Assembly: GCA_964586925.1 (NCBI GenBank)
Contig: CAZPJI010000001.1
Span: forward strand, 63,280-127,279
Direction of reading: 5' to 3'
Length of the DNA: 64,000 bases
DNA from: an uncultured Gammaproteobacteria bacterium
GTDB taxonomy: Bacteria; Pseudomonadota; Gammaproteobacteria; JAKDMP01
This document shows positions 13,161-45,085 of the stretch, piece after piece. Made by a program: the position numbers and the translations under genes. Under the pieces are notes generated by a model. That model saw nothing but the letters and a program-made list of their open reading frames with translations. It searched no databases and was not told the DNA's origin. The first letter of the stretch is position 1, and each line of letters starts with the position of its first letter.

Positions 13161-14404
13161 GATTCCGCCCCCTTGGCGACGGCCTGCTTAAGCAGGTCAA
13201 GGCCTTCTTCAAGGGTATCGTCTTCTATCGTCAGCGGCGGGGTCAGTTTCACCACGCGGCCGCCGGGCCCACAGCTCGGTATCAGCAGACCGTTCTCGAA
13301 GCCGTGCTTTACGACCTTGCTGACGCGTTCACCGGAGCCCATATCAAGTCCCTGAATCATGCCGCGTCCGCGCACTTCGGTTTCAATCGGCAGGCCCTTG
13401 GCGATCTTGTCCAGCCGTGCATGGATGCGCTTGCCTTTCTGATTCACCTCGTCCATGAATTTCTTGTCGGCCAGATAATCGAGTCCCTCGGCCCCCGCCA
13501 CGAAGGACAAATCCTGGCCGCGGAAGGTGCCGGTATGCTCGCCGGGTTTCCACTGGTCGTGTTCGGGTTTGATGAGCAACAAGCCCAGTGGAGTGCCATA
13601 ACCACCGATCCCCTTGGCCAGGCACACCAGGTCGGGATCGAGTCCCATGGCTTCGAAGCTGAAGAAGTCGCCGGTACGGCCGCAGCCGACCTGGATATCG
13701 TCAACGATGAGCAGGCTGCCGTGCTCGCGGGCGAGTTTCTGCAATGATTGCAGCCACTCACGGCTCGCCACGTTTACACCGCCCTCGGCCTGAATCGTCT
13801 CTACGAGGAACGCGGCCGGTGGCGTCATGCCGCTGGAGCTGTCCGCGAGCGCCCGGCGCAGTGGCTCGAGTGTATCCACTCCGGCGCCGAGATAACCGTC
13901 GTAAGGAATCCGCACGACATCATTGAGTGTCACTCCGGCTGCAGAGCGGAAATGCTCGTTGCCGGTGCAGGCCAGTGAGCCTAGCGTCATGCCGTGAAAA
14001 CCGTCCGTGAATGCCATGATCGTGTTGCGGCCGGTGACCTTGCGCGCGAGCTTGAGGGCTGCTTCCACCACGTTGGTGCCGGTAGGGGCGGGAAATTGCA
14101 ACTTGTAATTCAGTTTGTGCGGCTTGAGCGCCACCTCCTCGAAATGTTCCATGAAGTGTTGCTTGGCTCGCGTGTACATATCGAGGCTGTGGCTGACGCC
14201 GTCGCGCATCATGTAATCGATCATGGCTTGGCGCAGCCGCGGGTTGTTGTGGCCAAAGAGCAGCACGCCTGCACCGCCGAAAAAGTCGATGTACTCCTTT
14301 CCATCCACATCCTTCTGGCGGGCGTTGACTGCTGTGTCGAATACGGCCGGCCAGGCACGGCAATAGGCGCGTACTTCGGATTCAAGTCGCTCGAAAATAT
14401 TCAT
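13157..14404 (-). CDS. Diaminobutyrate--2-oxoglutarate aminotransferase (EctB/DoeD type), class III PLP enzyme
   Basis: Its N-terminus MNIFERLESEVRAYCRAWPAVF...YIDFFGGAGVLLFGHNNP and the PLP-lysine region (LAKGIGGYG) closely resemble EctB/DoeD proteins. It is 415 aa. Confidence 0.75.
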   Translation of the reverse strand: MNIFERLESEVRAYCRAWPAVFDTAVNARQKDVDGKEYIDFFGGAGVLLFGHNNPRLRQAMIDYMMRDGVSHSLDMYTRAKQHFMEHFEEVALKPHKLNYKLQFPAPTGTNVVEAALKLARKVTGRNTIMAFTDGFHGMTLGSLACTGNEHFRSAAGVTLNDVVRIPYDGYLGAGVDTLEPLRRALADSSSGMTPPAAFLVETIQAEGGVNVASREWLQSLQKLAREHGSLLIVDDIQVGCGRTGDFFSFEAMGLDPDLVCLAKGIGGYGTPLGLLLIKPEHDQWKPGEHTGTFRGQDLSFVAGAEGLDYLADKKFMDEVNQKGKRIHARLDKIAKGLPIETEVRGRGMIQGLDMGSGERVSKVVKHGFENGLLIPSCGPGGRVVKLTPPLTIEDDTLEEGLDLLKQAVAKGAES

Positions 14405-14700: not shown

Positions 14701-15378
14701 TCAGGAGGTCTTGCCCTTGACGGCTTGCTCGGTCATATCCGCAACCGTCTCGCAGATTTGTTCGATAATTTCGGGCGTATAGCCGTCTTTCATACCCAGG
14801 CGCCGGAGTATGACTTCGCGGTTGGCGCCGAAGGAGAGCGCCATGCCCAGGCACGCATGGGCCTGCATGATCGTATGCGGTGCATCGGCAGGCGCGCCCT
14901 GGATGAGGCCGACCAATTCACCGACCGCGCCATGCACATGGCGGAACATGCGCTCATAGAGCATCTCGAAGGCTGCGCCGGGTTGCAGTTGTTCGCGCAC
15001 GATGAAACTGCCGTATAGGGTGCGGGTCGGTGAGCGTGTGATGACGCGGATGACACCGGTTATCAGGGTTTTCAAGCGATGAGTGGCCTCCAAAGGGGTG
15101 GAGGGGCGCTCACCTTGAGGGAGTACTTCGGCGATGACATCAAGCATTTCGGTTCCGCAAGTGCTCACCACGTGCTCGGCTACAGCGGCGTAGACTCCCT
15201 CCTTGCCGCCGAAGTGGTAGGGGATCGCAGCCAGATTCACGCCGGCGGCTTCGGCCAGCGCCCGGGTGGTCACGCCATCGAAGCCATGACGGCCGAACAG
15301 CACGAGTCCAGCCTGTACCAGGCGTTCCCTGGTATCGCCGCCTTGTGCGGCGGATTCCTTCTGTTGACTCGCATTCAT
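14701..15378 (-). CDS. TetR/AcrR family transcriptional regulator
   Basis: It has an N-terminal HTH (RERLVQAGLVLFGRHGFDGVTTRALAEAAGVNLAAIPYHFGGKEG). It is 225 aa and divergent from the efflux operon. Confidence 0.85.
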   Translation of the reverse strand: MNASQQKESAAQGGDTRERLVQAGLVLFGRHGFDGVTTRALAEAAGVNLAAIPYHFGGKEGVYAAVAEHVVSTCGTEMLDVIAEVLPQGERPSTPLEATHRLKTLITGVIRVITRSPTRTLYGSFIVREQLQPGAAFEMLYERMFRHVHGAVGELVGLIQGAPADAPHTIMQAHACLGMALSFGANREVILRRLGMKDGYTPEIIEQICETVADMTEQAVKGKTS

Positions 15379-15497
15379 TGCGTTCTACTCATGGTGAGGC
15401 CTCATTCATGCAAAAGATTATAGCGCAATTCATACGATTGACTAATTCGATCGAATGAATTAACCTGCGCAGCCTCCCGAGTCGGAGCAAGTACCAC

Positions 15498-17021
15498 GTG
15501 TATTCCCAGGCAAGCCACAGAGCAGGAAACAAAGCCTTGTCGGCCCTCGTGGCTGGCGTTATTTTCGTGAGTTTGGCCGGATGTGCAGCGGGACCGGACT
15601 GGAAAAAGCCCGCGCTACCGGCCGATACGGCCTATCAGGCCGGAGCCGCTGCTACGGTCGGTGCTCGGGCCACGACCCAAAAAATCGACACCGGGAAACA
15701 GGTTGCGGCCGATTGGTATCGTCTGTTGGGGTCCGATCAGCTCGATTCACTGGTTAGCAGGGCGCTGCGTTCGAGTCCGACTTTGGCTGCCGCGCGGGCC
15801 CGTTTCCGGGCTGCCGGACATGATCTCGAGGCGGTGTCCGGTTCCCGTTATCCCTCGGTCGATGTCGGGGCAGGAGTTTCTCGGAATCGTGCGAATGGCG
15901 CTCAGATCGGTATCGATAACCCCTTGTTCAGCAATATGTTCGACTTGTACACCGCCAATGTGTCGGTGAGTTATGCGCTGGATATCGCCGGTGGCGAGAA
16001 CCGGGCCGTGGAGGAGAGCGCAGCACGGGCACGCCTTGCGCAAGATCAACTGATCGGCGCCCGTGTGTCGCTGGTCGACAACGTGGTCGTTGCAGCCCTG
16101 CAGTCGGCCACATTACAGGACGAAATCACGGCGACACGCCATATCATAGCCCTGGAAAAGAATACGCTCGAGATTGTGAAGGCCCGGGAGCAGGCCGGTG
16201 CGGTGCCCTTGTCCGACACCTTGCAAGCTCGGACAACACTGGCCAACGCGCAGGCCCGGCTGCCCACACTGCAAAAAAACCTCACGGTGGTGCAAACCCG
16301 TCTCGCAGCATTGATCGGTGATACGCCGAGTGTTTTCGATGCACCGGACTTGTCGTTGGAAGACCTGACGTTGCCGCAGGATTTGCCACTCAGTCTGCCC
16401 TCTGCATTGGTGCACCAACGGCCGGACATTCTAGCCGCACAGGCACGATTGCATGTCGCCAGTGCTGCGGTCGGGGTAGCCACCGCCAATCTCTACCCGC
16501 ACATTACGCTGACAGCGCATTACGGTTCTCAGACGAATTCCGCAAGTGACTTGTTCAAATCACCGGCAGCCGTGTGGGGTATCGGTGCCTCGCTCTTGTA
16601 TCCCCTGTTCCACGGGCAGGAACTGCGAGCCAAGCGCGATGCTGCGCGTTCTCGTTTCAATGCCGCTTATGCCGATTACCGCGAGACGGTTTTGCAGGCT
16701 TTTGCCCAGGTTTCCAATGTGCTAGGTGCCCTGGAGCAAGATGCCCGCACGCTGCACGCACGCGAGCAGGCGCTCCAGTCGGCAGCACAGAGCCGCCACC
16801 TGGTCCAAGCGCAGTATCGGGCGGGGGCCGTCGATTACATCGCAGTGCTCGACACAGAGCAGGCCTATCAGGCCGCACTTATTAACCAGATCCAGGCTTT
16901 ATCGGCGAGATACCAGGACACGGCCGCGCTGTACCAGGCGCTTGGCGGCGGTTGGTGGAATGCTGCGCCGTCTCCACATTCGACGACCGCGACAGCGGCC
17001 ACCCAGCAGGAGAAAAACTGA
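15498..17021 (+). CDS. RND/MFS efflux outer-membrane factor lipoprotein (NodT/OprM family)
   Basis: It has a lipobox (LAGCAAG) and two OEP repeats. The stop overlaps the emrA-like start (ATGA). Confidence 0.85.
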   Translation: MYSQASHRAGNKALSALVAGVIFVSLAGCAAGPDWKKPALPADTAYQAGAAATVGARATTQKIDTGKQVAADWYRLLGSDQLDSLVSRALRSSPTLAAARARFRAAGHDLEAVSGSRYPSVDVGAGVSRNRANGAQIGIDNPLFSNMFDLYTANVSVSYALDIAGGENRAVEESAARARLAQDQLIGARVSLVDNVVVAALQSATLQDEITATRHIIALEKNTLEIVKAREQAGAVPLSDTLQARTTLANAQARLPTLQKNLTVVQTRLAALIGDTPSVFDAPDLSLEDLTLPQDLPLSLPSALVHQRPDILAAQARLHVASAAVGVATANLYPHITLTAHYGSQTNSASDLFKSPAAVWGIGASLLYPLFHGQELRAKRDAARSRFNAAYADYRETVLQAFAQVSNVLGALEQDARTLHAREQALQSAAQSRHLVQAQYRAGAVDYIAVLDTEQAYQAALINQIQALSARYQDTAALYQALGGGWWNAAPSPHSTTATAATQQEKN

Positions 17022-18229
17022 TGACTGAAGAACAGGAATCGAAGCAGCAGGATCCGGGAACGGCAGCCGGGCAGGGCGGCGCGAAGAAACGCAAGAAAAT
17101 CCTGATCGGCCTCGCAGCCGTTCTGGTTGCTGGTGTTCTGGTCTATATCGGCTATTGGTTCTTTTACGGTCGCTGGCATGTGAGCACTGATGACGCTTAT
17201 GTGCATGGCAATATCGTCACGGTCACCCCGCAGGTCTCCGGCACGGTGGTTTCGATCGACACGGATGACACTGACTTCGTGCAGCAGGGGCAAGTGCTCG
17301 TCAAACTGGACAACACCGACGCGCGGTCCGCGCTGAGCCAGGCGGAGGCCGCATTGGCGCAGACCGTCAGGCAGGTACGCGGCCTGTATGCAAACGAGTC
17401 CGTGCTCAAAGCCCGGGTGGCGGCGCAATCGACAGCGCTGGCCCAGGCCCGGCGTGATTACGAACGCAACAAGGGACTGCGCCAGGTCAAAGGCGTATCC
17501 GAAGAGGTTTACCAACAATCAAAGACGGCGTACCGGAGCGACACGGCCAAGCTGGCAGCGACCCGCGCCCAGCTAAAGGCAGCCCGGGCAGCCGTGTCCG
17601 GCACGACGCTACGCACCCATCCACTGGTGCTCCAGGCCGAGGCCAAAGTGCGGGATGCCTGGATTGCACTGGCACGCACCCGCATCGTCGCTCCCGTATC
17701 GGGCTTCGTGGCCAATCGCAACGTGCAGCTTGGCGAAAGGGTGCAACCAGGCCAGTCTTTGCTGGCCGTGATACCGCTCGATGAAATCTGGGTCGATGCA
17801 AACTTCAAGGAAACAGACCTGGCCACGGTGCATATCGGTCAACCGGTGACGGTTGTCTCGGATCTTTATGGCAGCGGTGTGAAATACAACGGCCGGGTCG
17901 TGGGGCTCGATGCGGGCACCGGCGGCGTTTTTGCATTGCTACCGCCCCAGAACGCGAGTGGCAACTGGATCAAGGTCGTGCAACGGCTGCCCGTGCGCAT
18001 TGCCCTGAACGATAAACAAGTCAAGAAGCATCCTTTGCGTCTGGGATTGTCGATGACGGCGACGATCGACACACACGATCGTAACGGCCCGGTGCTGGCT
18101 CGGTCTCCTGTGACGGGTCCCGGCAACGTGACCCCGGTTTATGGGCAGGAGTCCAAGGGCGTCAATGCACTCATCGAGCGCATCGTGGATGCCAATGCAG
18201 GCGCTGCCGGAGAGGAAGCCTCCCGGTGA
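17021..18229 (+). CDS. emrA: HlyD/EmrA-family membrane fusion protein
   Basis: It has a single N-terminal TM helix, a coiled-coil region and beta-barrel domains of EmrA type. It is translationally coupled to the upstream and downstream genes. Confidence 0.85.
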   Translation: MTEEQESKQQDPGTAAGQGGAKKRKKILIGLAAVLVAGVLVYIGYWFFYGRWHVSTDDAYVHGNIVTVTPQVSGTVVSIDTDDTDFVQQGQVLVKLDNTDARSALSQAEAALAQTVRQVRGLYANESVLKARVAAQSTALAQARRDYERNKGLRQVKGVSEEVYQQSKTAYRSDTAKLAATRAQLKAARAAVSGTTLRTHPLVLQAEAKVRDAWIALARTRIVAPVSGFVANRNVQLGERVQPGQSLLAVIPLDEIWVDANFKETDLATVHIGQPVTVVSDLYGSGVKYNGRVVGLDAGTGGVFALLPPQNASGNWIKVVQRLPVRIALNDKQVKKHPLRLGLSMTATIDTHDRNGPVLARSPVTGPGNVTPVYGQESKGVNALIERIVDANAGAAGEEASR

Positions 18230-19821
18230 GCGAAGCGGCGGTCGCCGGAGCCATGCCCGCGCGCCAGGGCGTCAGCCCATGGGTGATCGCGCCCGTGGTG
18301 GCGCTCGCTGCGTTCATGGAAGTACTGGATATCTCCATCGCCAACGTGGCGCTCGATCACATTGCGGGCGCCATGTCGGTGTCGATCGACACTTCGACCT
18401 GGATTCTCACCAGCTATACAGTAACCAATGCGATCGTGGTGCCCATCAGCGGTTGGTTGTCGGAAGTAGTAGGTCGCAAGCGTTTTTTCCAGATCTCCAT
18501 CGCGGGCTTTGCGATTGCCTCGCTACTCTGCGGCATTGCGCCAACGATCGGGATGCTGGTGCTGTTCAGGGCCATCCAGGGCATAGCCGGCGGCGGCCTG
18601 CAACCGGTTTCGCAAGCGATTCTGGCCGATGCCTTCCCGCCCGCCAAGCGTGGTACCGCCTTCGCCCTCTATGGACTGGCGGTTGTGTTTGCCCCCGCCA
18701 TTGGACCGACCATCGGTGGCTGGATCACCGACAGCATCAGTTGGCGTTGGGTGTTTTTGATCAATGTCCCGGTCGGCGTAATCGTCTTCGTGCTCGTACA
18801 GGCCCTGGTGACCGATCCGGCACACCAGATCAAGGCTCGCCTTGCACGGTTGAAACGCGGCATCCGGCTCGACTGGATCGGCTTTTCGTTGTTGACCTTG
18901 GGCCTGGGCGGCATGCAGATCGTGCTCGACCGCGGGCAGCAGGACGACTGGTTCGGCTCCAGTTTCATCGTGATCCTCACGGTCGTTTTCGTGGCCTCCC
19001 TGATTGCGTTCGTGGTCTGGGAACTGGGGGATCATGATCCCATCGTCGATCTAAGGTTGCTGCGCGAGCGCAACTTCGGGATTGCCAACCTGCAAATGTT
19101 TGCCGTGGGCATCGTGCTCCTGGCGAGCACTGCACTGTTGCCGATCTTCGTGCAGAGTCGCTTGGGCTATACGGCATTCGACGCTGGTCTCGTGTTGACG
19201 CCGGGTGGCATTGCCCTGGTGCTCATCATGCCCATCATGGGGCGCCTGGTAACCAAGGTGGATTCGAAATGGTTGATCGCGATCGGGTTCCTCGTGAGCG
19301 GCACGGCTATGTTGTGGATGGGAGGGTTCAATACCCAAACTGACTACTGGACGATCGTCTGGGCACGCGCCTTCCAGGCAGCAGGGCTCGCCTTCCTGTT
19401 CATACCCATCAATACAGCGGCCTATATCAATCTGCCCCTGGAGAAATCCAGCAATGCCTCCGCGCTGATCAACATGTCGCGCAACATAGGCGGCAGCATT
19501 GGCATTTCACTGACGACGGCTTTCCTGTCTCGGCGCACGCAAGTGCACCAGAGCCGTATGGTCGAAAATGCGAGTAATTTCAACGATACCTACAAGCATG
19601 CACTGGAGAAACTGGGGCATGCCTTTGCCCAACTGCCGGGCGAGGCGGCCGATGCCATGCAGCACGGCGCCGCCGTGATCTACAACGCGATTCTGAGTCA
19701 GGCGAACATGCTCGCTTTTATCGACGATTTCCATGCCCTGGCATGGATGTCGTTTCTGCTTGTGCCGCTGGCGTTCTTCTTGAGCCGCACGGTCGGAGAG
19801 GGTGTTCACGAAGGGCACTGA
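18226..19821 (+). CDS. emrB: MFS drug-resistance transporter, DHA2 (EmrB/QacA) family, 14 TM
   Basis: The 531-aa protein has EmrB-like N-terminal motifs (ALDISIANVAL, GWLSEVVGRKRFF, FRAIQGIAGGGL). Confidence 0.88.
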   Translation: MSEAAVAGAMPARQGVSPWVIAPVVALAAFMEVLDISIANVALDHIAGAMSVSIDTSTWILTSYTVTNAIVVPISGWLSEVVGRKRFFQISIAGFAIASLLCGIAPTIGMLVLFRAIQGIAGGGLQPVSQAILADAFPPAKRGTAFALYGLAVVFAPAIGPTIGGWITDSISWRWVFLINVPVGVIVFVLVQALVTDPAHQIKARLARLKRGIRLDWIGFSLLTLGLGGMQIVLDRGQQDDWFGSSFIVILTVVFVASLIAFVVWELGDHDPIVDLRLLRERNFGIANLQMFAVGIVLLASTALLPIFVQSRLGYTAFDAGLVLTPGGIALVLIMPIMGRLVTKVDSKWLIAIGFLVSGTAMLWMGGFNTQTDYWTIVWARAFQAAGLAFLFIPINTAAYINLPLEKSSNASALINMSRNIGGSIGISLTTAFLSRRTQVHQSRMVENASNFNDTYKHALEKLGHAFAQLPGEAADAMQHGAAVIYNAILSQANMLAFIDDFHALAWMSFLLVPLAFFLSRTVGEGVHEGH

Positions 19822-19876
19822 AGCATATCCATGCCTTATATGTCAGCATGGGGAAAGACTCGCTCGGGAGAGACGG

Positions 19877-20746
19877 ATGCAAACGATAGGATTCGTTGGT
19901 TTCGGTTCGATGGGCCATCCCATGGCTCAACGCCTGCTGGAGGCCGGTTACCCGGTCTACGGTTACAACCGCACCAAAGAGAAGGTGAGTGATCTGCAGA
20001 AGCAGGGCTTGAAGTGGTGTGACAGCCCGCGGCGCGTAGCCGAAGCGGCCGATGTCGTCATCAGTATGGTGAGCGACGACAATGCGCTGGAAGCTGTGGC
20101 CACCGGTGATGACGGCATCCTGAAAGGGTTGGCTGAAGGCAACATTTATGTCGACATGAGCACGGTAAGTCCCGATACCAGCCGCCGGTTCGCGAAGCAG
20201 GTTGCGGCGCGAGGCGCGAAGATGCTCGATGCTCCCGTGTCAGGCAGCGTACCTCAGGCCGAGAAAGGTATTTTGACCATAGTGGTTGGCGGCGATCGAG
20301 GCGCGTTCGATGAGGTAACGCCGATTCTTGAAACCTGGGGCACACCGCATTACATTGGATCGAATGGGCAGGGAGAGTTATTGAAGCTTGCGATCAATAT
20401 CAGCCTTGCGGCCCAGATGCTTGCCTTCAGCGAAGGGGTCTTGCTGGCCGAGCGGGGTGGCATAGACCACGAGACAGCCGTGGACGTCATGGCGGGCAGC
20501 GCCATCGGTTCGCCGCTGCTCAAAGCCCGAGGACAGCTACTGCAGGAACTGCCCGAGCAGAACTGGTTTACGCTCGATTTGCTGCACAAGGACATTCGAC
20601 TGGCGCTGGATAGCGGCAGAAAGCTGGGCACGCCACTGCCTTCGGCACATGCCTCGGATGAAACCCTGGCTAAGGCCCATGAGGCAGGCCATGGTCAGTT
20701 TGATATTGCCGCCGCTTTCAAGGCACTGTCCGAGATGCCTGGCTGA
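19877..20746 (+). CDS. NAD(P)-dependent 3-hydroxyisobutyrate / 2-hydroxy-3-oxopropionate reductase family oxidoreductase
   Basis: It has a Rossmann motif (IGFVGFGSMGHPMAQRL) and the 6PGDH-like C-terminal domain. The start is taken at MQTIGF (19877) rather than the extended ORF start at 19802. Confidence 0.8.
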   Translation: MQTIGFVGFGSMGHPMAQRLLEAGYPVYGYNRTKEKVSDLQKQGLKWCDSPRRVAEAADVVISMVSDDNALEAVATGDDGILKGLAEGNIYVDMSTVSPDTSRRFAKQVAARGAKMLDAPVSGSVPQAEKGILTIVVGGDRGAFDEVTPILETWGTPHYIGSNGQGELLKLAINISLAAQMLAFSEGVLLAERGGIDHETAVDVMAGSAIGSPLLKARGQLLQELPEQNWFTLDLLHKDIRLALDSGRKLGTPLPSAHASDETLAKAHEAGHGQFDIAAAFKALSEMPG

Positions 20747-23700
20747 ACCGGGAGCGCTCCGCGAATATCGTCGCGAGCTTGTGCAAACGCGGATCCGTAG
20801 CCAGATCATCCAGGCTCACTGGTAAACGGCGTCTCCAGTTTGGTGTCTCGTCGCCCAATCCGGGCAGGTTGGCCTGGTGTTGCAGGCCGAGCACGTCCTC
20901 GATCTGAACGATAATCAGGCGGCTGGCCGTGGCGGCCAGGAAGCGGTGGGCGGAATCGGCAAACAGATGTAAAGCGTTCTCGCCGCCGTACGAGACCAGC
21001 AGTGACTCCAATGCCCGCAAGGCTAGCTGGCGTTCTGCGCGCATGGCATGTGCTTGCGCGGTGGAGGCATACAGGCCGTATGCTTCGCGGTCGTCGATGT
21101 CGGTGCCCGCCAGGAAACCGTTGAGTGTCGGCAGGTCATGCGTGCTCGCCGTCGCCGCCGCAAGTTCCGTGTACGCTTCTGGCGGAATAAAGCGGCCTGA
21201 TCGGTCGCGTTCGAAATAGAGCACCCGATAACCGAGCATGCCCGCAGCAGTGATGTGCTCGCGCAAGCCGGCCGGCGGATTGCCCAGGTCTTCACCGATG
21301 ACCATGCAATTAAATTGTTTGCTCGCTTCTGCTACGCAATCCAGCAGTGCATGGAACGGATAACTTACGTAGGCGCCTTGGCCAGGCGTATCACCGCGTG
21401 GTATCCAGAATTGCCGCATTAAACCCATGACATGATCCATGCGCACGGCGCCGGCGTCTCGCATCACGACTTTGAGCAGGGCGGCGAAAGGTGCGTACTT
21501 CCTGTCGACCAGGCTGTGTGGACGCCAGGGCGGTGCTCCCCAGGCTTGCCCGCGCGGCGCGAAAGCATCCGGCGGTGCACCCAACTCGGCGTCCAGCGCC
21601 ATCAGTCCGGGCCATTGCCAGGCTTCTGCGCTGTCCAGGTCGGTGCCGAGCGCCAGGTCGGTCATCAAGCCGATCTCCATGCCGGCATTCCGCGCTCGCT
21701 GTGCCGCCGTCTGCCACTGGTTGCGAGCCAGCCATTGGAGATAAACGTAAAATTCGACCTGTTCGGAATGTTCCTGCTCGAACCTCTCGACGGCTCCGGT
21801 GTTAGGCTCACGAAATTCCGCCGGCCAGCACATCCAGGGCAAGGGTGCTGCCTGTCGTTCGGCAAACCAGGCACTCAAAGTCTCGAACACTGCGTAATCC
21901 CGCAAGGGACCGCCTTCCGTCTCACGAAAGTACAGAAATGCTTCGCCTAATGCGCTGGGCGTGGTGCCCAGATGACGCTTGCGGAATGCCCGGTGAAGGA
22001 CGTGCAGCGCCCGCAACTTGATGTTTGAAACCGCTGTGTAATCGATCGTTTCGGCTGCATTCAGCCGCTCAATCTTGTCACGGAGCGGGGTGGTTCCAAG
22101 TAATTTATCCAGAGCGCCACCATCCATTTTTGCTGCCTCGGGGACGGAGATCAGCAAGGGGTTCAACATCAAGCGCGAACAGGGAGCATAGGGTGAAGCC
22201 CGTTCCGGATGGCATAGTGAGGGCGCATGAACGGGGCTCAGCAGCACGCCGGCCGCACCGGTTGAAGCAGCGATGTCAATCCACTGCGCCAGATCGGCAT
22301 AGTCCCCAATTCCCCAACTGTTGGCCGAGCGCAGGCTGTAGACCTGTGCCGACAGCGCCCAGAGCCCTGGCGGTTTGCGGATCGCCTCCGGCAGCCAGCA
22401 CCGCGGTTGACGCTGTACGGTGGGCTCGGACTCCGTGATTGCTTTACCGCCGACGGATTTGATCAGTGCCTCCAGTGCAGAAGCCGGCACTTGCCGGCGC
22501 ACGCCGGAAATATCGCGGTATTCGGTAGCGATGCCCGCGGCATTTGCCCGTGTGTGCAGGCTTTCCGGTACGCCCAGGCCGGGTGTTCTGCTCGGGACCA
22601 GCGCAAGCAGGCTTCCGGGCAGAACGGTTACGGTGCTCTGTACTGCATGGAGCGCATCGGCCAGGTCGTCAGACAGTGCGCTGCTGTCCAGAACGCACAG
22701 CCAGTCGCCGTCAACAACAGGGGGCAGCGTGAAGTCGAGCGCCGTATGCCCCGCGTTCACCGCCAGATACAGTTGCCCATGGAGCGGACCCCGGATATCG
22801 TTCATGAAGATGCCGAGGGCTGAGCGGTCCGGCTCTTCCCATTGCGAGGGTTTCAGTTCGCAGGCATCCGGGTTCAGCCAGGCAATGTCTTTCAAATCGT
22901 GTTCAGTGTCGATGGTGTTGCCGTCGAAGAAGCGGTTGTCGCACAGCAGAGGCAACTGCTTGCGCAGAGTCACGGTGCGGTGCACGAACGCCACCAGGTC
23001 GCGCCATGCGTCGCCTTGTGCCGACCAGTCCAGCCAGGAGATTGCATTGTCCTGGCAGTAGGCATTGTTGTTGCCATGCTGGGTCTGGGATAACTCGTCG
23101 CCGGCCAGCAACATGGGGGTGCCGCGCGAAAGGAGCAAAGTCGCTATCAGGGATCTACGCAGGCGCCGCCGGCGTTCAAGAATGTCCGGATTCTCCGTTG
23201 GACCCTCGGCTCCGGCATTGCTGCTCCAATTGGCATCGTTGCCGTCCCGGTTGTTTTCACCGTTGGCCTCGTTGTGCTTGTTCGCATAGGCCGTCAGGTC
23301 GGCGAGAGTGAATCCGTCGTGGGCGGTTACGAAATTGACACTTTCCGACGGACGTTTTCCGTTGTGTTGATAGAGGTCGCCGGAGCCGGCGAATCGTGTG
23401 GCCAGTTCGCCAAGTGTGCCGCTGTCTCCGCGCCAGAAGCGCCGGACAGTATCGCGGTATCGGTCGTTCCATTCGACGAAAGGTTCGGGAAAGGCGCCGA
23501 GGAAATGACCGGGCATTCCCAGGTCCCAGGGTTCCGCGATCAGTTTTAGGCGATTCAGTTCGGGATCGGAGCGGATAGCTTCCAGGAGTGGGGCTTGCGG
23601 GTCGAAGTTGCCATCGCGGTCACGGGCAAGGGCGGCCGCGAGATCGAAGCGGAATCCGTCCACGCCCACTTCGACGGCCCAATAGCGCAATGCGCCGTGG

Positions 23701-24686
23701 ACGAGTTCGACTACGGGGGGTTGGGTGAGGTCGAGCGTGTTGCCGCAACCCGTGAAGTCTTCATAACGATCGGGGCGATCGGCGTGGAGGCGGTAATAGA
23801 CGACATTGTCCAGGCCCCGGTAGGCCAGAGTAGGGCCGAATTCATCGTTTTCTGCGGTGTGATTGAAAACCACGTCGAGAACCACCTCCAGACCGTTCTC
23901 ATGCAAGCGATCTATGGCATGCATGAATTCCCCGATATCGTCGCCGGCCAGGTAGGAGGGTTGCATGACAAACGGTGCCAAGGGGTTATAGCCCCAGTAA
24001 TTGCGCAATCCACGCTGAACCAGATGCCATTCGTCGACGAAGGCCGTTATCGGTAATAGTTCAATCGTTGTTACACCGAGCCTGTGCAGGTGATCGATAA
24101 CGGCCGGGTGTCCCAGGGCGGCCGCTGTGCCGCGCAGGTGTTCAGGAATGTCCTGGTGCTGCATCGTGAAGCCGCGCAGATGCATTTCGTAGATGATCGT
24201 GTCCGGCCAGTGGATATCCGGCCGCGGCGGACGATTGCCCATCTTCGGCGCAGCGATAACGCATGCTTTGGGGACATATGGCGCACTGTCGCGGTCATCC
24301 GGCCGAGCCTGGCCGTCTTTTCCGTTGCCATGATAACCGCAGACGGCATCGTTCCAGGTCAGCTTTCCCTGTATCGCCCGCGCCCAGGGATCCAGGAGCA
24401 ATTTATGTGGATTGAAGCGGTGGCCTTCCGCAGGCTCATAGGGGCCGTGGACCCGGTAGCCATAGATCAGGCCGGGGGCGGCAGCTTCCAGGTAGCCACA
24501 CCAGACATCTTCGTGGCGTGTCGGTAGTGCGAAACGTCTAAGTTCGCGTTGACCGGATTCATCGAAAAGACATAGTTCGACTTTTTCGGCATGCCTGGAG
24601 AAAACCGCGAAATTGACGCCGCGGCCGTCCCAGTGTGCACCCAGGGGCGCGGGTGATCCCTGGGTGAGAGCAGGCGCTGCGGACAT
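20718..24686 (-). CDS. Bifunctional glycogen debranching enzyme (GlgX/isoamylase, GH13) fused to 4-alpha-glucanotransferase (MalQ, GH77)
   Basis: This is a single uninterrupted 1322-aa ORF. The N-terminal about 700 aa is GlgX-like (MSAAPALTQGSPAPLGAHWDGRGVNFAVFS..., catalytic region YRGLDN, FRFDLAAALAR, EPWDLG). The C-terminal about 620 aa is amylomaltase-like (GIGDYADLAQWIDIAASTGAAGVLLSPV..., RMDHVMGL). Confidence 0.85.
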   Translation of the reverse strand: MSAAPALTQGSPAPLGAHWDGRGVNFAVFSRHAEKVELCLFDESGQRELRRFALPTRHEDVWCGYLEAAAPGLIYGYRVHGPYEPAEGHRFNPHKLLLDPWARAIQGKLTWNDAVCGYHGNGKDGQARPDDRDSAPYVPKACVIAAPKMGNRPPRPDIHWPDTIIYEMHLRGFTMQHQDIPEHLRGTAAALGHPAVIDHLHRLGVTTIELLPITAFVDEWHLVQRGLRNYWGYNPLAPFVMQPSYLAGDDIGEFMHAIDRLHENGLEVVLDVVFNHTAENDEFGPTLAYRGLDNVVYYRLHADRPDRYEDFTGCGNTLDLTQPPVVELVHGALRYWAVEVGVDGFRFDLAAALARDRDGNFDPQAPLLEAIRSDPELNRLKLIAEPWDLGMPGHFLGAFPEPFVEWNDRYRDTVRRFWRGDSGTLGELATRFAGSGDLYQHNGKRPSESVNFVTAHDGFTLADLTAYANKHNEANGENNRDGNDANWSSNAGAEGPTENPDILERRRRLRRSLIATLLLSRGTPMLLAGDELSQTQHGNNNAYCQDNAISWLDWSAQGDAWRDLVAFVHRTVTLRKQLPLLCDNRFFDGNTIDTEHDLKDIAWLNPDACELKPSQWEEPDRSALGIFMNDIRGPLHGQLYLAVNAGHTALDFTLPPVVDGDWLCVLDSSALSDDLADALHAVQSTVTVLPGSLLALVPSRTPGLGVPESLHTRANAAGIATEYRDISGVRRQVPASALEALIKSVGGKAITESEPTVQRQPRCWLPEAIRKPPGLWALSAQVYSLRSANSWGIGDYADLAQWIDIAASTGAAGVLLSPVHAPSLCHPERASPYAPCSRLMLNPLLISVPEAAKMDGGALDKLLGTTPLRDKIERLNAAETIDYTAVSNIKLRALHVLHRAFRKRHLGTTPSALGEAFLYFRETEGGPLRDYAVFETLSAWFAERQAAPLPWMCWPAEFREPNTGAVERFEQEHSEQVEFYVYLQWLARNQWQTAAQRARNAGMEIGLMTDLALGTDLDSAEAWQWPGLMALDAELGAPPDAFAPRGQAWGAPPWRPHSLVDRKYAPFAALLKVVMRDAGAVRMDHVMGLMRQFWIPRGDTPGQGAYVSYPFHALLDCVAEASKQFNCMVIGEDLGNPPAGLREHITAAGMLGYRVLYFERDRSGRFIPPEAYTELAAATASTHDLPTLNGFLAGTDIDDREAYGLYASTAQAHAMRAERQLALRALESLLVSYGGENALHLFADSAHRFLAATASRLIIVQIEDVLGLQHQANLPGLGDETPNWRRRLPVSLDDLATDPRLHKLATIFAERSRFSQASRTVP

Positions 24687-24693
24687 GGGGCCG

Positions 24694-26973
24694 TCAGGAA
24701 TCGGGCGACAGAAAGATCAGCGTCGCCAATGGCGGCAAGTCGAGGACCAGCGATTGGGACTCGCCGTGCCAGGGAACCGGCACGGTGCCGGCATGCCCGC
24801 CGTTGCCGACGTCGGAACCGCCGTATATACGCGCGTCGCTGTTGAAAAGTTCGCGGTAAGTCCCGGCAACCGGCGCGCCGACGCGATAGCTGGAGCGGGG
24901 TACGGGCGTGAAATTGCTCATGATCAGTGCAAAGCGTTCCCCACTGCGGCCCATGCGGCACCAGGACAGAACGCTTTGCTCGCTGTCGTTGCAGTCGATC
25001 CAGCGAAAGCCATTGCCCTCGCAATCGTAGCGATGGAGGCAATCGAGTGTGCGATAGAGGTTATTGAGATCGCGGACCATGTCCCGGACTCCGCGGTGGG
25101 CGGGATCACCCAGTAGCCCCCAGTCCAGTTCGCGATCATGATCCCATTCGCGTTCCTGAGCTAATTCTCCGCCCATGAACAACAACTTCTTCCCCGGTTG
25201 CGTGTATTGAAACGACAGATACAGGCGCAGGTTGGCAAATGCCTGCCAGCGATCGCCGGGCATTTTGCCCAGCAGCGATCCTTTGCCGTGCACGCTCTCG
25301 TCATGCGAAAGCGGCAGGATGAAATTTTCGCTGTAAGCGTAAAGTTGGCCGAAAGTCAGTTTGTCGTGATGGAAGCGGCGATGGACTGGATCGTGACGCA
25401 TGTAGTCCAGCGTGTCGTTCATCCAGCCCATGTTCCACTTGTAATCGAAACCCAGACCGCCCACGTAAGTCGGACGGGTCACCATCGGCCAGGCGGTTGA
25501 CTCTTCCGCAATCGTCAGTGTGCCCGCGGGCGCTTCGCGGTGCACGATTTCGTTGAGTTTTTTCAGGAAGGCCACGGCTTCCAGGTTCTCGCGCCCGCCA
25601 TAGGCATTGGGCAACCATTCGCCGGGCTTGCGGTTGTAGTCGAGGTAAAGCATCGAGGCGACGGCGTCAACGCGCAGACCGTCGATGTGGAATTCACGCA
25701 GCCAGTAAAGCGCGTTGGCAATGAGAAAATTGGCGACCTCGCGGCGGCCATAGTTGTAGACCGAGGTGTCCCATTCCGCGTGATGTCCAAGGCGCGGGTC
25801 TTCATGCTCGTACAGGTGGGTGCCGTCGAACGTGGTCAAGCCGTGTTCATCGGTGGGGAAATGGGCCGGAACCCAATCGAGCAGGACACCGAGCCCTGCC
25901 TGATGGCATCGGTCGACAAAGCGCCGGAACGCGTCCGGCGTTCCCCATCTTGCGGAAGGCGCGAAAAGAGCGGTGGGCTGGTAGCCCCAGGAGCCGGAAA
26001 AGGGGTGCTCGTTGATCGGGAGCAGCTCGATGTGCGTGAAGCCCAGGTCACAGGCATAGGGAATCAGGGCATCGGCCATTTCCTCGTAGGTGTAATAACG
26101 TCCGTCGGGATGGCGCCGCCAAGACCCCAGGTGCAGTTCGTAGATCGAAAGCGGCGCATCCAATGCCTGTACCTGTGGTCGTCGCGCCATCCACTCCTGG
26201 TCGTTCCAATGGAAATCCGGATTCAAACAGACCCGGGAGGCCGTCGCCGGCGGTACTTCCGTCAAAAAGGCATAGGGGTCGGACTTGAGGGTGATGTCTC
26301 CGTTAGGCGCGCGCACCTCGAACTTGTACAAGGTGCCGTCAGCAATGGCGGGCAGGAATATTTCCCAGACCCCGCATTCGAGGCGCTTGCGCATCACGTT
26401 TACCCGGCCGTCCCAATGATTGAAGGGACCGACGACACTGACGCGCTGCGCGTTGGGTGCCCAGACGGCAAAAGCCACGCCCGTCACGCCATCCAGCGTA
26501 CGCGGATGGGCGCCCAGCACTTGATAAGCGTGCCAGTGAGCGCCTTCGGCCAGAAGGTGGCAGTCGAGTTCGCCCAGCAGGGGCGGGAAGGCATAGGGGT
26601 CTTCGGCCTCGTACACGCCGTGGTCGTCGGTGACTCGCAGACGATAAGGAAAGCGTTCCCTGATCTGGTTCAACTCCAGCGAAAAACAGCCGGCCGAATC
26701 CAGTTTGCTGAACGTGCCGAGAGCACGTCCGCTGCCTCGCTCCAGAAGTTCGACCCGATTGGCCCCGGGCAGGAAGCAACGTACGGCCAAGCAGTCCGTC
26801 TCCCGGATATAGTGCATGCCGAGCACGGCATAAGGGTCGTCATGCTCGCCGCGCAGCAAGCGCGCCCAATCGTTCCGCAGAGTCACCTCTGCCACGGATT
26901 GTGAAGATCCGCCCCAACGCGAGTGCAGGGCGCGCTCAGCCCGGGCGGTGCGGTAGGTAGGCTTCTGCGGCAT
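24694..26973 (-). CDS. glgB: 1,4-alpha-glucan branching enzyme
   Basis: The 759-aa protein has CBM48 plus GH13 catalytic motifs (DWVPAHF, GFRVDAVASMLY, GEL...QE) and the GlgB N-terminus. Confidence 0.92.
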   Translation of the reverse strand: MPQKPTYRTARAERALHSRWGGSSQSVAEVTLRNDWARLLRGEHDDPYAVLGMHYIRETDCLAVRCFLPGANRVELLERGSGRALGTFSKLDSAGCFSLELNQIRERFPYRLRVTDDHGVYEAEDPYAFPPLLGELDCHLLAEGAHWHAYQVLGAHPRTLDGVTGVAFAVWAPNAQRVSVVGPFNHWDGRVNVMRKRLECGVWEIFLPAIADGTLYKFEVRAPNGDITLKSDPYAFLTEVPPATASRVCLNPDFHWNDQEWMARRPQVQALDAPLSIYELHLGSWRRHPDGRYYTYEEMADALIPYACDLGFTHIELLPINEHPFSGSWGYQPTALFAPSARWGTPDAFRRFVDRCHQAGLGVLLDWVPAHFPTDEHGLTTFDGTHLYEHEDPRLGHHAEWDTSVYNYGRREVANFLIANALYWLREFHIDGLRVDAVASMLYLDYNRKPGEWLPNAYGGRENLEAVAFLKKLNEIVHREAPAGTLTIAEESTAWPMVTRPTYVGGLGFDYKWNMGWMNDTLDYMRHDPVHRRFHHDKLTFGQLYAYSENFILPLSHDESVHGKGSLLGKMPGDRWQAFANLRLYLSFQYTQPGKKLLFMGGELAQEREWDHDRELDWGLLGDPAHRGVRDMVRDLNNLYRTLDCLHRYDCEGNGFRWIDCNDSEQSVLSWCRMGRSGERFALIMSNFTPVPRSSYRVGAPVAGTYRELFNSDARIYGGSDVGNGGHAGTVPVPWHGESQSLVLDLPPLATLIFLSPDS

Positions 26974-28684
26974 ATCGGCGCATCATGCGATGTGAGTTGA
27001 ATATGGTTCCGATCTTGCTGATGGCCTGGCGCATCATCCAGATCCAGCGTTCGCGATCGTTGTAATACAAAGGCAGCACGACGCGTTCGAGCTTGTCGTA
27101 CAGGTGCTCGGCGTCGGCCGCCGCCAGCCTTTGGTCGCTATGCCCGATCCCCCATCCGGTGACATCCTCGATGCAACCTTCTATCCACCACCCATCGAGG
27201 ACGCTGAGGTTAAGGACACCATTGATGGCAGCCTTCATGCCGCTGGTCCCCGACGCCTCGAGCGGAGGCTCCGGCGTATTCAACCAGACATCCGATCCAC
27301 TGATGACGGTACGCGCGATGCTGATGTCGTAGTTGGACAGGAAAACAACGCGCAGGGTCGGTCCCAGTTCGTCGATCAGCTCATGGATGCGGTGAATCAT
27401 GTCCTTGGCCGGATGGTCGTGGGGGTGAGCCTTGCCGGCCATGACGATCTGGAAGGGGTGCTCGGCATGAATAGCCTTGAGTTTTTCGAGATCACTGAAC
27501 AGCAGCGTGGCGCGCTTATAGGCCGCGAACCGGCGGGCAAAACCCAGAATCGGCAGCTTCGGATCGAGTTCTATGCCCACACTACGGTGTATCAAATTAA
27601 TCAGGTCGGACTTCGCGTTCTGATGGGCGCTCCAGATCCCCGCACTGGGCAATTGATCGAATCGCGCCATGACCTCGGGCGAATAGCCCCACTCATGTGA
27701 ATGGCGGTTGAATACTTCGCTGAACGCGGGATGGATCCAGGTGGGCACATGGATGCCATTGGTAATCGCACGAATCTCGTATTCCGGAAACATCCGGGTC
27801 GTGGTTTCCGCGTGGCGCGTCGCGACGCCGTTGATGTAGCCGCTGAGATTGAGTGCAAGCCGCGTCATGTTGAGGCGATCCTCTCCGCCGAGCTGCCTGA
27901 CCTGGTCCAGCGCAATGTAGCCTTTCAACAGATGACCGAACAGCTCGTAGGAAAATCGATCGTGGCCGGCTTCGACCGGCGTGTGTGTCGTGAAGATACA
28001 TGCGGAGCGCACCCGCGAGACATCGTACTTGAGTTCACCGGGAGCGATGAGATCGGCCGGGCGCGGATGGCGGCGCAACAGGTCGAGGGCCAGCAATGCG
28101 GCATGGCCTTCGTTGAGGTGGAAGGTCGTGATCTGGAAGCCCAGCGCAGGCAGGAGGCGCAGGCCGCCGATGCCCAGCACGATCTCCTGCTTAAGCCGGT
28201 AGACTTCGTCGCCGCCATAGAGCACATCCGTGATCGAGCGATCTTCGGGACGGTTTTCGGGCAGGTCGGTATCCAACAGAAGCACCGGAACGGTGTTGCC
28301 CTTGGGGCTCACCAAGGGATAAAGCCAGGGGCGTACCCAGACCTCATGCCCTTCGATGATGACGGCGACTTTTGCGCGCAGAGGCGTGGCATAGTCCTCC
28401 GGCGACCAGGGATCGGGATGATCGACCTGCCGGCCCGATTCATCGATCTCCTGGCGCAGGTAACCCTGACGGCAGAGCAGGGTTACGAACACCATGGGCA
28501 GGCCCAGGTCGGCACTGGCCTGGACGGTGTCCCCGGCCAGCACGCCGAGGCCGCCGCTGTAGGTATGGATCTCGGGGCGTAGCGCGATTTCCATGGAAAA
28601 GTAAGCGATGCGGGTGCCTCTCAGGTAGGGACCTATCGTCGCCCCGGAACTCTGTCCATGGGGTGAATTGTACGAGCTTGTCAT
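26936..28684 (-). CDS. Alpha-glucan family phosphorylase (GT35), short form without N-terminal DUF3417
   Basis: It has the GT35 motifs SMEIALRPEIHTYSGGLGVLAGD and EASGTSGMKAAINGVLNLSVLDGWW. It is 582 aa. Confidence 0.85.
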   Translation of the reverse strand: MTSSYNSPHGQSSGATIGPYLRGTRIAYFSMEIALRPEIHTYSGGLGVLAGDTVQASADLGLPMVFVTLLCRQGYLRQEIDESGRQVDHPDPWSPEDYATPLRAKVAVIIEGHEVWVRPWLYPLVSPKGNTVPVLLLDTDLPENRPEDRSITDVLYGGDEVYRLKQEIVLGIGGLRLLPALGFQITTFHLNEGHAALLALDLLRRHPRPADLIAPGELKYDVSRVRSACIFTTHTPVEAGHDRFSYELFGHLLKGYIALDQVRQLGGEDRLNMTRLALNLSGYINGVATRHAETTTRMFPEYEIRAITNGIHVPTWIHPAFSEVFNRHSHEWGYSPEVMARFDQLPSAGIWSAHQNAKSDLINLIHRSVGIELDPKLPILGFARRFAAYKRATLLFSDLEKLKAIHAEHPFQIVMAGKAHPHDHPAKDMIHRIHELIDELGPTLRVVFLSNYDISIARTVISGSDVWLNTPEPPLEASGTSGMKAAINGVLNLSVLDGWWIEGCIEDVTGWGIGHSDQRLAAADAEHLYDKLERVVLPLYYNDRERWIWMMRQAISKIGTIFNSHRMMRRYAAEAYLPHRPG

Positions 28685-28894
28685 TGACGGGTAATCTCCC
28701 CAATGCTGTTACACGATCGCTTTCCGTTCCGTTTCAGGATACTCTCGGCATAGCGTGAGGATTCTTGACTTCGGTCAACTCCGGCACTTCGGCCAAGTCA
28801 TAACATCGGCTGTACACGCGAATCGGTTATGCGAGGCCTGGAGGACGGGATGACAGCCAATCCCGAAAAATGTCGGGAAGGCGTAAGCCCGCAA

Positions 28895-30493
28895 ATGCAT
28901 CGAAACGATGGCTTGCGGGTTTTGTTTACCGCATCGGAAATTTACCCGCTGGCCAAGACCGGCGGTTTGGCAGACGTGAGCGCTTCGTTACCCGTCCAGC
29001 TTGTCCGTCAGGGCGTTAACGTCAGGCTTTTGATGCCGGGTTACACCTGCGCGTTGGAGCAGATATCCAAGCCCCAGGTCGTGGCTGATCTGGGCGAAAT
29101 CCTGCCCGGAGCTTCGGTTCGGCTGGTGGCCGGCTGGACACCGGATTCCGGGTTGCCGATCTGGCTGGTCGACTGTCCGTCGCTATTCCAGCGCCCGGGA
29201 ACGGTCTATCAGGATCCGGATGGGAGAGATTGGGAAGACAACGCCCTGCGATTCGGGTTGTTGAGCCACGTCGCGGCCCGCATCGGGCTCGGTCAAACGG
29301 CATTGGGCTGGCGCCCGGATATCGTGCATGCTCACGATTGGCATACGGGATTGGTGCCACTCTTGTTGAAGCAAGCAGGCCAGCAGCGGCCCCGTACGGT
29401 TTTCACGATACATAACGCAGCCTTCCTGGGCTGTTTCCCCGTCGAAAGCCTCAATCATCTCGGTTTGGCCACCGGAGCCTTGTCCGCGAGCGATATCGAG
29501 TTCTACGGACAGGTTTCCTTCCTCAAGGCGGGGGTGGCTTTTGCGGACAAACTGACTACGGTCAGTCCGAGCTATGCCTGCGAAATCCAGACGCCCGAGT
29601 ATGGGGCTGGGCTCGATGGGCTGTATCGGGCCCGTTCGAGTGATCTGTCCGGCATCATGAACGGGATTGACTCATCGTTGTGGAATCCGGCATTGGATCC
29701 GATGTTGCCCCGTACCTATTCCGCGGATCATATCGAAGGCAAGCAGATCTGCAAGGCCAGTCTGCAGCATCATTCCGGTCTCCACATAGATCGTTGCGCT
29801 CCCCTCGTAGCCTTCGTGAGCCGCCTGGCCCAGCAAAAGATGGCTGACATCGTCCTTGAGCATTTACCGCAGATTCTTGAACAACATCCGCGGTTGCAAT
29901 TCGTCGTGCATGGCCGCGGGGAAAGGAGTCTGGAGGAGGGTTTCAGTCGGCTTGCCCTGGAATATCCGGGCCGTCTGGCGGTCAGGATCGGTTATGAGGA
30001 ATCCTATGCCCATCGTCTCCAGGCAGGCGCAGATATCCTTCTCCACGGCGCGCGCTTCGAGCCGTGTGGCCTGACCCAGTTATATGCCATGCGCTATGGG
30101 ACGATTCCCGTGGTCCGCCGGGTTGGAGGCCTGGCGGACAGCGTCGTCGATGCTGCGATGCAGGACGCGACCGGTTTTGTCTTTGAAGAGCCCAACGGCG
30201 CCTCGATGTGTCAGGCCTTGGAGCGTTGCATCGATTTCTATCGGAATTGCTCGCAGGATTGGGTGCGCATGCGTATACGTGCGATGAGGATGGACTTCAG
30301 CTGGGCACGGTCTGCCGACAAGTACATCCAGCTCTATTCCGAACTCGTGCCGGAATTCCAGCCCGGTTACGCATCGGAGACGGAAACGCAGCCGACAAGC
30401 AAGGTAATAACGGGACACGGGCCCTATGGGAAAGCCATGGTTCCCCTCGCGGGCGCGAGAGATCAATTGGCAATCATGCCGAATTTCGGGTAA
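28895..30493 (+). CDS. glgA: Glycogen synthase (ADP-glucose type) with about 50-aa C-terminal extension
   Basis: RVLFTASEIYPLAKTGGLADV is the classic GlgA N-terminus and the fold is GT5/GT1. The start is taken at 28895 rather than the ORF-track start at 28829. Confidence 0.9.
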   Translation: MHRNDGLRVLFTASEIYPLAKTGGLADVSASLPVQLVRQGVNVRLLMPGYTCALEQISKPQVVADLGEILPGASVRLVAGWTPDSGLPIWLVDCPSLFQRPGTVYQDPDGRDWEDNALRFGLLSHVAARIGLGQTALGWRPDIVHAHDWHTGLVPLLLKQAGQQRPRTVFTIHNAAFLGCFPVESLNHLGLATGALSASDIEFYGQVSFLKAGVAFADKLTTVSPSYACEIQTPEYGAGLDGLYRARSSDLSGIMNGIDSSLWNPALDPMLPRTYSADHIEGKQICKASLQHHSGLHIDRCAPLVAFVSRLAQQKMADIVLEHLPQILEQHPRLQFVVHGRGERSLEEGFSRLALEYPGRLAVRIGYEESYAHRLQAGADILLHGARFEPCGLTQLYAMRYGTIPVVRRVGGLADSVVDAAMQDATGFVFEEPNGASMCQALERCIDFYRNCSQDWVRMRIRAMRMDFSWARSADKYIQLYSELVPEFQPGYASETETQPTSKVITGHGPYGKAMVPLAGARDQLAIMPNFG

Positions 30494-30541
30494 TCACGAT
30501 TGATCGCCATGAATCATGAAAGCTATTCATGAGTCAAAGAG

Positions 30542-30829
30542 GTGTTAATGATGAAACAGACGAGCACAGGCAGTAGTACTGCAGGCAGGAAGGGGACCCG
30601 AATCCCCGTCGCAGCCCGCAAAAAGGCATTAGCCAAGAGTTCAACCACACGCAAACCGGCAACGGCCAGATCGCCCACCTTGGAGCATCCCATTGACGAA
30701 GATGCAAGGCACGCGATGATTGCACAAGCGGCCTATTTTCGTGCAGAGCACCGAGGTTTTGCTCACGGTGAGGAATTGAATGATTGGCTGGAGGCAGAGC
30801 GCGAGATATCGCGCATCATTGAAAGCTGA
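30542..30829 (+). CDS. DUF2934 family small protein with basic low-complexity N-terminus
   Basis: The C-terminal AYFRAEHRGFAHGEELNDWLEAEREI matches the DUF2934 signature. The N-terminal 45 aa are Lys/Arg/Thr/Ser-rich. It is embedded between glgA and the long phosphorylase. Confidence 0.7.
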   Translation: MLMMKQTSTGSSTAGRKGTRIPVAARKKALAKSSTTRKPATARSPTLEHPIDEDARHAMIAQAAYFRAEHRGFAHGEELNDWLEAEREISRIIES

Positions 30830-30834
30830 TCATT

Positions 30835-30864
30835 CCGGGGTTATGTGCTTCGCGGTAACCCCGG
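30835..30864 (+). terminator. GC-rich hairpin (CCGGGGTTA-N12-TAACCCCGG) immediately after the DUF2934 gene stop
   Basis: It is a perfect 9-bp stem seen directly in the sequence. There is no downstream T-tract, so it may be an intra-operon attenuator or stability element rather than an intrinsic terminator. Confidence 0.4.
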
Positions 30865-45073: not shown

Positions 45074-45085
45074 GAGCCCCCCGAA

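Follow-up and report, generated by a model that had tools for sequence, protein, structure and literature searches.

A single open reading frame (ORF) in the window, by which the whole 64,000-nucleotide stretch analyzed here is meant (contig CAZPJI010000001.1 of an uncultured Gammaproteobacteria bacterium), encodes a 1322-residue protein in which the glycogen debranching enzyme GlgX is followed by the 4-alpha-glucanotransferase MalQ. The protein is likely a bifunctional glycogen-catabolic enzyme, with GlgX fused head-to-tail to MalQ through loss of the stop codon and spacer between two adjacent genes. Judged from sequence, the gene is real and conserved, and its product probably has both activities. 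The fused enzyme is genuine but genomically ordinary: the same architecture recurs in diverse bacteria and is covered by curated family models.

Domain organization and catalytic residues of the fused protein

The frame was read throughout and contained no internal stop codon. The first-pass annotation of this locus, which had described one uninterrupted frame joining a complete GH13 debranching enzyme to a complete GH77 glucanotransferase, was exact in its coordinates, length and domain identities when compared with the ORF list and the Pfam and NCBIfam matches. A complete GlgX (CBM48 and GH13) occupies residues ~10-700 and is followed by MalQ (GH77) at residues ~707-1322. The first half exceeded the equivalog cutoff of TIGR02100 (NCBIfam; 915.3 bits, cutoff 640.9), with profile positions 2-670 of 688 covered by residues 10-680, and was assigned to GlgX with both CBM48 and the GH13 triad present; the GH13 alpha-amylase catalytic domain was placed by Pfam at residues 197-357. 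The second half was assigned to MalQ/GH77 by PF02446 (370.6 bits, cutoff 25; profile positions 2-460 of 465 covered) and by the NCBIfam MalQ model TIGR00217 (357.6 bits, cutoff 205.65; residues 774-1304), and its Asp/Glu/Asp triad is present. The description of the GH77 enzyme as complete holds for the catalytic domain and for the ~40 residues at the start of MalQ, but not for the ~100-residue N-terminal beta-sandwich MalQ_N (PF21226).

Residues D348, E385 and D457 align with D336, E371 and D443 of E. coli GlgX (PDB 2wsk), and D1084, E1132 and D1184 align with D448, E496 and D548 of E. coli MalQ (PDB 4s3p), which we take to be the catalytic residues of the two E. coli enzymes. The surrounding motifs are intact in both the GlgX half (GFRFD, AEPWD and TAHDG) and the GH77 half (RMDHV, IGEDLG and THDLPT), and all six catalytic carboxylates are unchanged across an alignment of 56 fused proteins. 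By these signatures both halves look catalytically competent.

AlphaFold2 (AF2) modeling of residues 123-1322, for which the alignment of 56 sequences was used, gave a mean predicted local distance difference test (pLDDT) score of 89.7 and a predicted template modeling (pTM) score of 0.87. The junction was predicted to be ordered, with a helix at residues 708-716, a hairpin and a second helix at residues 735-745, and low confidence was confined to residues ~746-762, the site that holds MalQ_N in longer proteins of the same architecture. A pTM score that high for two enzymes of ~600 residues each suggests a defined mutual orientation in the model.

Junction, origin and distribution of the fusion

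When the protein was aligned with unfused glgX-malQ pairs, the C-terminus of GlgX fell at residues 703-706 of the window protein, and the initiator Met of MalQ fell directly after it. The following residues, ~708-745 (ESLHTRANAAGIATEYRDISGVRRQVPASALEALIKSV), match the conserved N-terminal motif of stand-alone MalQ, and the ~15-residue loop behind this helix-hairpin-helix is the position of the MalQ_N beta-sandwich in long-form proteins. In this alignment a complete GlgX runs straight into the first residues of MalQ, essentially without an added linker. Since the point of joining coincides in the alignment with the stop of GlgX and the start of MalQ in adjacent unfused genes, the fusion is a stop-codon read-through: a stop codon and a short spacer separating neighboring glgX and malQ genes of the same orientation were lost, giving a head-to-tail fused enzyme. 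In the window, the codon aligned with the initiator Met of MalQ has ceased to be a start codon, and inspection of the sequence found neither an in-frame ATG nor an evident ribosome-binding site near the junction. An internal start producing a separate MalQ was considered and rejected: the only in-frame candidates were two GTG codons (729 and 733), neither with a ribosome-binding site.

The unfused comparison set consisted of 80 loci at ~50% identity among the matches listed, collected by a scan of genome contigs whose listed matches came through the very conserved NNNAYCQD motif; it contains no close orthologues and gives no frequency estimate for the fusion. By ORF-level classification, glgX stands alone in all 80 of these listed loci, a separate same-strand malQ is present in 34 of them, and malQ lies directly downstream of glgX in ~13. 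At one locus, from a Steroidobacter metagenome-assembled genome (MAG; L066, 7007..7018), the TGA of glgX and the ATG of malQ are 6 nt apart and in frame, and the genes are unfused; judging from this spacing, one substitution would yield the fusion. The locus carries 300 masked N. Its pairing with the fused protein P0076 as recent unfused and fused sisters was rejected, the identity being only 55% and L066 containing masked N runs.

Fused proteins occur in a short and a long form. Long fusions of ~1400 residues (Methylocystis, Magnetococcus and Burkholderiales MAGs) keep the MalQ_N beta-sandwich between GlgX and GH77, with PF21226 matched in P0079, P0043, P0053 and P0076. The Pfam search gave no PF21226 match in the window protein, and its clade, at ~1320 residues, is without the domain. 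NF008274 (PRK11052), the model of the long E. coli-type MalQ, was matched only from position 129 and at 485.7 bits (cutoff 806), and membership in that family failed. Stand-alone MalQ proteins likewise occur both with MalQ_N (L038 and L066) and without it (L011 and L032). The best single NCBIfam match of the window protein was NF011082, at 1130.4 bits in two stretches; this lies under the cutoff of 2511, so that equivalog membership failed, and none of the 7 fused proteins tested reached that cutoff. The match is in two pieces because the clade of the window protein lacks the MalQ_N beta-sandwich of the 1410-position model, with which the Methylocystis-type fusions align end-to-end. The order represented by NF011082, GlgX then MalQ in one polypeptide, is found in the window protein. 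The protein is at most 76% identical to anything deposited, its closest matches being metagenomic proteins, and is best described as a short variant of a known architecture.

When 1.84 billion representatives at 50% identity were searched exhaustively, 5976 proved homologous to one or the other half at E <= 1e-30. The best 150 of these comprised 42 with both halves, 104 with GlgX only and 4 with MalQ only; among the 42 fused representatives, 41 had GlgX before MalQ and 1 had the reverse order. All of the best 120 clusters at 90% identity (120/120) were full-length fusions of 1282-1464 residues, in a ranking that favors two-domain over single-domain proteins and overstates the frequency of fusion. 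Carriers include named Ralstonia, Burkholderia, Pandoraea, Rhodanobacter, Dyella, Methylocystis and Magnetococcus, and the closest named relatives of the window protein are from a Gammaproteobacteria MAG (70%) and a Rhodanobacter sp. (64%). On these comparisons the fused architecture is a small minority of the GlgX and MalQ families, yet diverse and well established. The earlier description of the architecture as rare did not survive them, given 120 fused top clusters, at least 42 representatives at 50% identity and the existence of curated NCBIfam models. Other arrangements were also seen: P0144 (1590 aa) is a MalQ-then-GlgX fusion, and in P0166 and P0180 (~1650 aa) GlgX carries ~950 further C-terminal residues unlike MalQ, which may be another alpha-glucan enzyme partner.

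In neighbor-joining (NJ) trees of each half, the window protein was placed within an all-fused clade of ~50 clusters. Monophyly of all fusions had 0% support in either half (200 bootstrap replicates), and every replicate required at least 3 transitions between fused and unfused states for the GlgX half and at least 4 for the MalQ half. The fusion would thus have arisen or reverted at least three times; because the trees are distance-based and their sampling of stand-alone genes is biased, they are reliable only for the qualitative conclusion of recurrence. The clade of the window protein and the Methylocystis-type clade were joined in the GlgX half (74%) and not in the MalQ half (0%). An interpretation of the two clades as independent fusions, taken from midpoint-rooted NJ trees, was withdrawn after this bootstrap conflict between the halves.

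The fused frame could in principle be an artefact, with glgX and malQ being separate adjacent genes that were merged in the assembly through an indel error or the loss of a stop codon. Neighboring glgX and malQ genes in the same orientation are common, and the Steroidobacter locus illustrates how small the required change can be. Against this, the nearest database protein (P0003, 76% identity) is a 1323-residue single ORF on a 337-kb contig (L081) of an independent assembly, with the same gene order as the window: a 582-aa phosphorylase, GlgB, the fusion and a convergent dehydrogenase, with GlgA and an 833-aa phosphorylase divergent. Over 100 codons around the junction, comparison of the two sequences shows 35 silent and 27 replacement changes and no gap; 62 codon differences without a gap imply that the fused frame has been kept through substantial divergence. 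The fusion was also found on 12 contigs of Ralstonia solanacearum and on 19 of Burkholderia thailandensis, including the complete chromosome CP004090.1, with the core module of GlgP-GlgA divergent from GlgB-GlgX::MalQ in both species, and in all ~50 clusters of the window protein's clade. The lost MalQ start codon described above points in the same direction, as do the missing in-frame ATG and ribosome-binding site around the junction. With a probability that we regard as negligible, the artefact is effectively refuted by these sequences. The proviso of the first-pass annotation, that the fusion should not be a sequencing or assembly artefact, is thereby settled in favor of a genuine fusion, and the comparison it had proposed with orthologues, in search of two separate genes differing by a single indel, had the opposite outcome, the orthologues of the clade all being fused.

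Proposed role and alternatives

In the bacterial pathway, phosphorylase trims glycogen to maltotriosyl and maltotetraosyl stubs, GlgX frees the stubs, and from these MalQ makes longer chains and glucose by disproportionation (PMC8062543, PMC11046441). By extension from the E. coli pathway, the alpha-glucan phosphorylases encoded in the same cluster would cut the outer chains of glycogen to stubs of 3-4 glucose units, and the GlgX half would hydrolyze the alpha-1,6 bond to release maltotriose or maltotetraose. The GH77 half would then disproportionate these short chains into longer linear maltodextrins, or transfer them back onto glycogen ends; phosphorylase may act again on the GH77 products, and glucose would be released. 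The fusion guarantees 1:1 expression and co-localization of two consecutive steps. As GlgX and MalQ act in consecutive steps, their coupling is a reasonable idea and the likely role of the fused protein; we infer the flow of substrate and, as possibilities, a kinetic benefit and channeling between the halves.

Several points weigh against this proposal. The pTM score points only indirectly to a fixed geometry between the domains of the model. The fusion is dispensable for the pathway, and could be selectively near-neutral, since most GlgX and MalQ genes are separate. The absence of MalQ_N from the clade means that the donor or acceptor preference of its GH77 domain could differ from that of E. 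coli MalQ. A sequence search of solved structures found none with both halves in one chain, and a literature search, with subscription journals mostly outside its coverage, found no paper characterizing a GlgX-MalQ fusion by assay of either activity.

Two other functional readings were weighed against the bifunctional enzyme. That one half has become a non-catalytic module, serving only in glucan binding or scaffolding, is very improbable: such decay is known in other alpha-glucan enzyme fusions, as in the chlamydial GlgA-GlgB fusion, whose GlgB domain is inactive (PMC11046441), and the clade of the window protein has lost MalQ_N, but the six catalytic residues and their motifs are invariant in the fused proteins and both halves score above curated equivalog cutoffs. 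A closer partnership, in which the GH77 half mainly returns GlgX-freed branches to non-reducing ends on the same glycogen particle by proximity channeling, is unlikely, although less so. Glucose would then leave almost entirely as glucose-1-phosphate, by way of the phosphorylases of the cluster, and the protein would be an analogue of the eukaryotic transferase/glucosidase enzyme. The AF2 model, in which the two enzymes form a single rigid body and the junction is ordered, is consistent with such a partnership, as is the position of the gene beside two phosphorylases and glgB, not beside maltose-uptake genes; the GlgX half's CBM48 domain could keep the enzyme bound to glycogen, and the independent recurrence of the fusion suggests an advantage. 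Simple gene adjacency also predicts recurrent fusion, however, the two genes are separate in most bacteria, and the order of the steps (hydrolysis, then transfer) and the domain families are not those of the eukaryotic enzyme. We therefore consider it doubtful that a fixed active-site geometry hands GlgX-released maltotetraose to the GH77 site for re-attachment to the outer chains of glycogen, as a true bacterial counterpart of indirect debranching would. If it did, a kinetic advantage would explain the several independent origins of the fusion, and the short form without MalQ_N would be a further specialization for a tethered substrate.

A bifunctional enzyme formed by gene fusion, the preferred interpretation, offers clean gene-fusion support for the functional link between GlgX and MalQ and an example of stop-codon loss with several recurrences. 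Its practical value is modest and lies in annotation and in the question of channeling; no new kind of system is opened.

Genomic context and comparison with known systems

The fusion lies in a cluster of glycogen genes (Table 1). The TGA of glgB is 7 nt before the ATG of the fusion, a gap consistent with one operon.

Table 1. Features of the fused gene and of the glycogen cluster, in coordinates of the window.
Feature	Position	Strand	Basis or remarks
glgX::malQ fused ORF	20718..24686	-	1322 aa; ATG 24684-24686; TGA 20718-20720
CBM48 (isoamylase N-terminal domain), aa 14-102	24381..24647	-	Pfam PF02922, 68 bits
GlgX half (GH13 debranching enzyme), aa 10-680	22647..24659	-	TIGR02100
GlgX-half catalytic codons	D348 23643-23645; E385 23532-23534; D457 23316-23318	-	Aligned to E. 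coli GlgX 2wsk
Fusion junction, aa 700-775	22362..22589	-	Alignment with unfused glgX/malQ pairs; AF2 confidence
Retained MalQ N-terminal helix-hairpin-helix motif, aa 708-745	22452-22565	-	Junction alignment, AF2
GH77 4-alpha-glucanotransferase catalytic domain, aa 781-1289	20820..22346	-	Pfam PF02446
GH77 catalytic codons	D1084 21435-21437; E1132 21291-21293; D1184 21135-21137	-	Aligned to E. coli MalQ 4s3p
glgB (branching enzyme), immediately upstream of the fusion	24694..26973	-	NF003811, 1002 bits
582-aa alpha-glucan phosphorylase, first gene of the same-strand cluster	26936..28684	-	TIGR02094, 544 bits, full-length
glgA (glycogen synthase), divergent	28829..30493	+	NF001899, 610 bits
833-aa alpha-glucan phosphorylase (DUF3417-type GlgP)	30967..33468	+	TIGR02094, 787 bits; also in Ralstonia and Burkholderia modules

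The 582-aa phosphorylase is without the DUF3417 N-domain and the GlgP_C domain of its 833-aa paralogue, and its ORF overlaps the start of the glgB ORF by 38 nt. It is kept in L081 but missing from the modules of Ralstonia and Burkholderia. L081 carries a DUF2934 gene and a phosphoglucomutase gene (2074..4134) between glgA and the 833-aa phosphorylase; the corresponding gap in the window (30493..30967) contains only a 95-aa ORF (30542..30829) and no phosphoglucomutase gene. On the other side of the fusion, a TetR-like regulator and an EmrA/EmrB/NodT-type efflux operon (14701..19821) separate the dehydrogenase gene (19802..20746) from an aminotransferase/M24-peptidase pair (12000..14404). These flanks are adjacent in L081, which marks an insertion or deletion in the synteny. 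A 986-aa GAF-GGDEF-EAL protein of cyclic-di-GMP signaling is encoded a few kb from the glycogen cluster (36003..38963, + strand), and NiFe-hydrogenase maturation genes lie at 44066..49535 (- strand), encoding a HypE-like protein with AIRS domains, HypF (781 aa) and a HypX-like formyltransferase/enoyl-CoA hydratase fusion (645 aa). In Ralstonia solanacearum (L083, 21671..23993), another set of alpha-glucan genes, for a GH57 enzyme and a second GlgA-like glycosyltransferase, is found ~8 kb downstream of the fusion.

The catabolism of glycogen and maltodextrin in E. coli employs GlgX and MalQ one after the other (PMC8062543). Each half of the window protein is clearly homologous to its E. coli counterpart, at 633 bits for GlgX (2wsk) and 354 bits for MalQ (4s3p), and the catalytic residues are identical. 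Unlinked genes encode the two E. coli polypeptides, whereas the window encodes one chain, in which the ~127 N-terminal residues of E. coli MalQ, including the beta-sandwich, are unmatched.

GlgX is a direct debrancher that frees whole branches of 3-4 glucose units, so that in the fused protein hydrolysis would precede transfer, the reverse of the eukaryotic order. In the eukaryotic debranching enzyme, transfer comes first and the removal of a single glucose follows (PMC4236520). Eukaryotic AGL/GDE and archaeal TreX, like the window protein, combine alpha-1,4-transferase and alpha-1,6-debranching activities in one polypeptide (PMC4236520, PMC11046441). GDE does so with a GH13-type transferase and a GH133 glucosidase, in contrast to the GH77 transferase and direct GlgX-type isoamylase of the window protein, and TreX carries out both reactions in one GH13 site instead of two separate domains. 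No GDE_C/GH133 domain was found in the window protein by Pfam at E <= 0.01, only CBM48, Alpha-amylase and GH77, and membership in AGL/GDE failed. Of the parallel to the eukaryotic enzyme drawn in the first-pass annotation, the presence of two activities in one chain stands, but with the steps in reverse order and GDE_C/GH133 missing the two are loose analogues only.

MalQ has repeatedly been fused to neighboring alpha-glucan enzymes, as in the MalQ-GlgB fusion of Neisseria (PMC11046441), which differs from the window fusion in partner enzyme and domain order. The same differences apply to MalQ-TreY (NCBIfam NF011077, PRK14507), the MalQ portion of which was matched by the GH77 half at 593 bits.

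The closest known systems are other GlgX-MalQ fusions. Those of Ralstonia solanacearum, Burkholderia thailandensis and cepacia, Pandoraea, Rhodanobacter, Dyella and Dokdonella belong to the same clade in both half-trees, have the same short junction and are 50-64% identical to the window protein over 99-100% of its length. The Ralstonia and Burkholderia modules share the glgP-glgA / glgB-fusion arrangement, the window having the extra 582-aa phosphorylase upstream of glgB. For Methylotuvimicrobium alcaliphilum, one accession, CCE25166, is given without comment for GlgX and MalQ alike (PMC8062543). Members of the window protein's clade are named by their sources only as 'glycogen debranching protein GlgX' or, in some UniRef entries, as '4-alpha-glucanotransferase'. 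With such single-activity names the second activity is invisible to pathway reconstruction, and a genome could wrongly appear to be without malQ. The architecture is already catalogued, in NF011082 and NF011083 and in JGI names such as 'glycogen debranching enzyme GlgX/4-alpha-glucanotransferase'; these two models of the PRK14510 lineage, entitled 'bifunctional glycogen debranching protein GlgX/4-alpha-glucanotransferase', have the same CBM48-GH13(GlgX)-GH77(MalQ) order as the protein encoded in the window.

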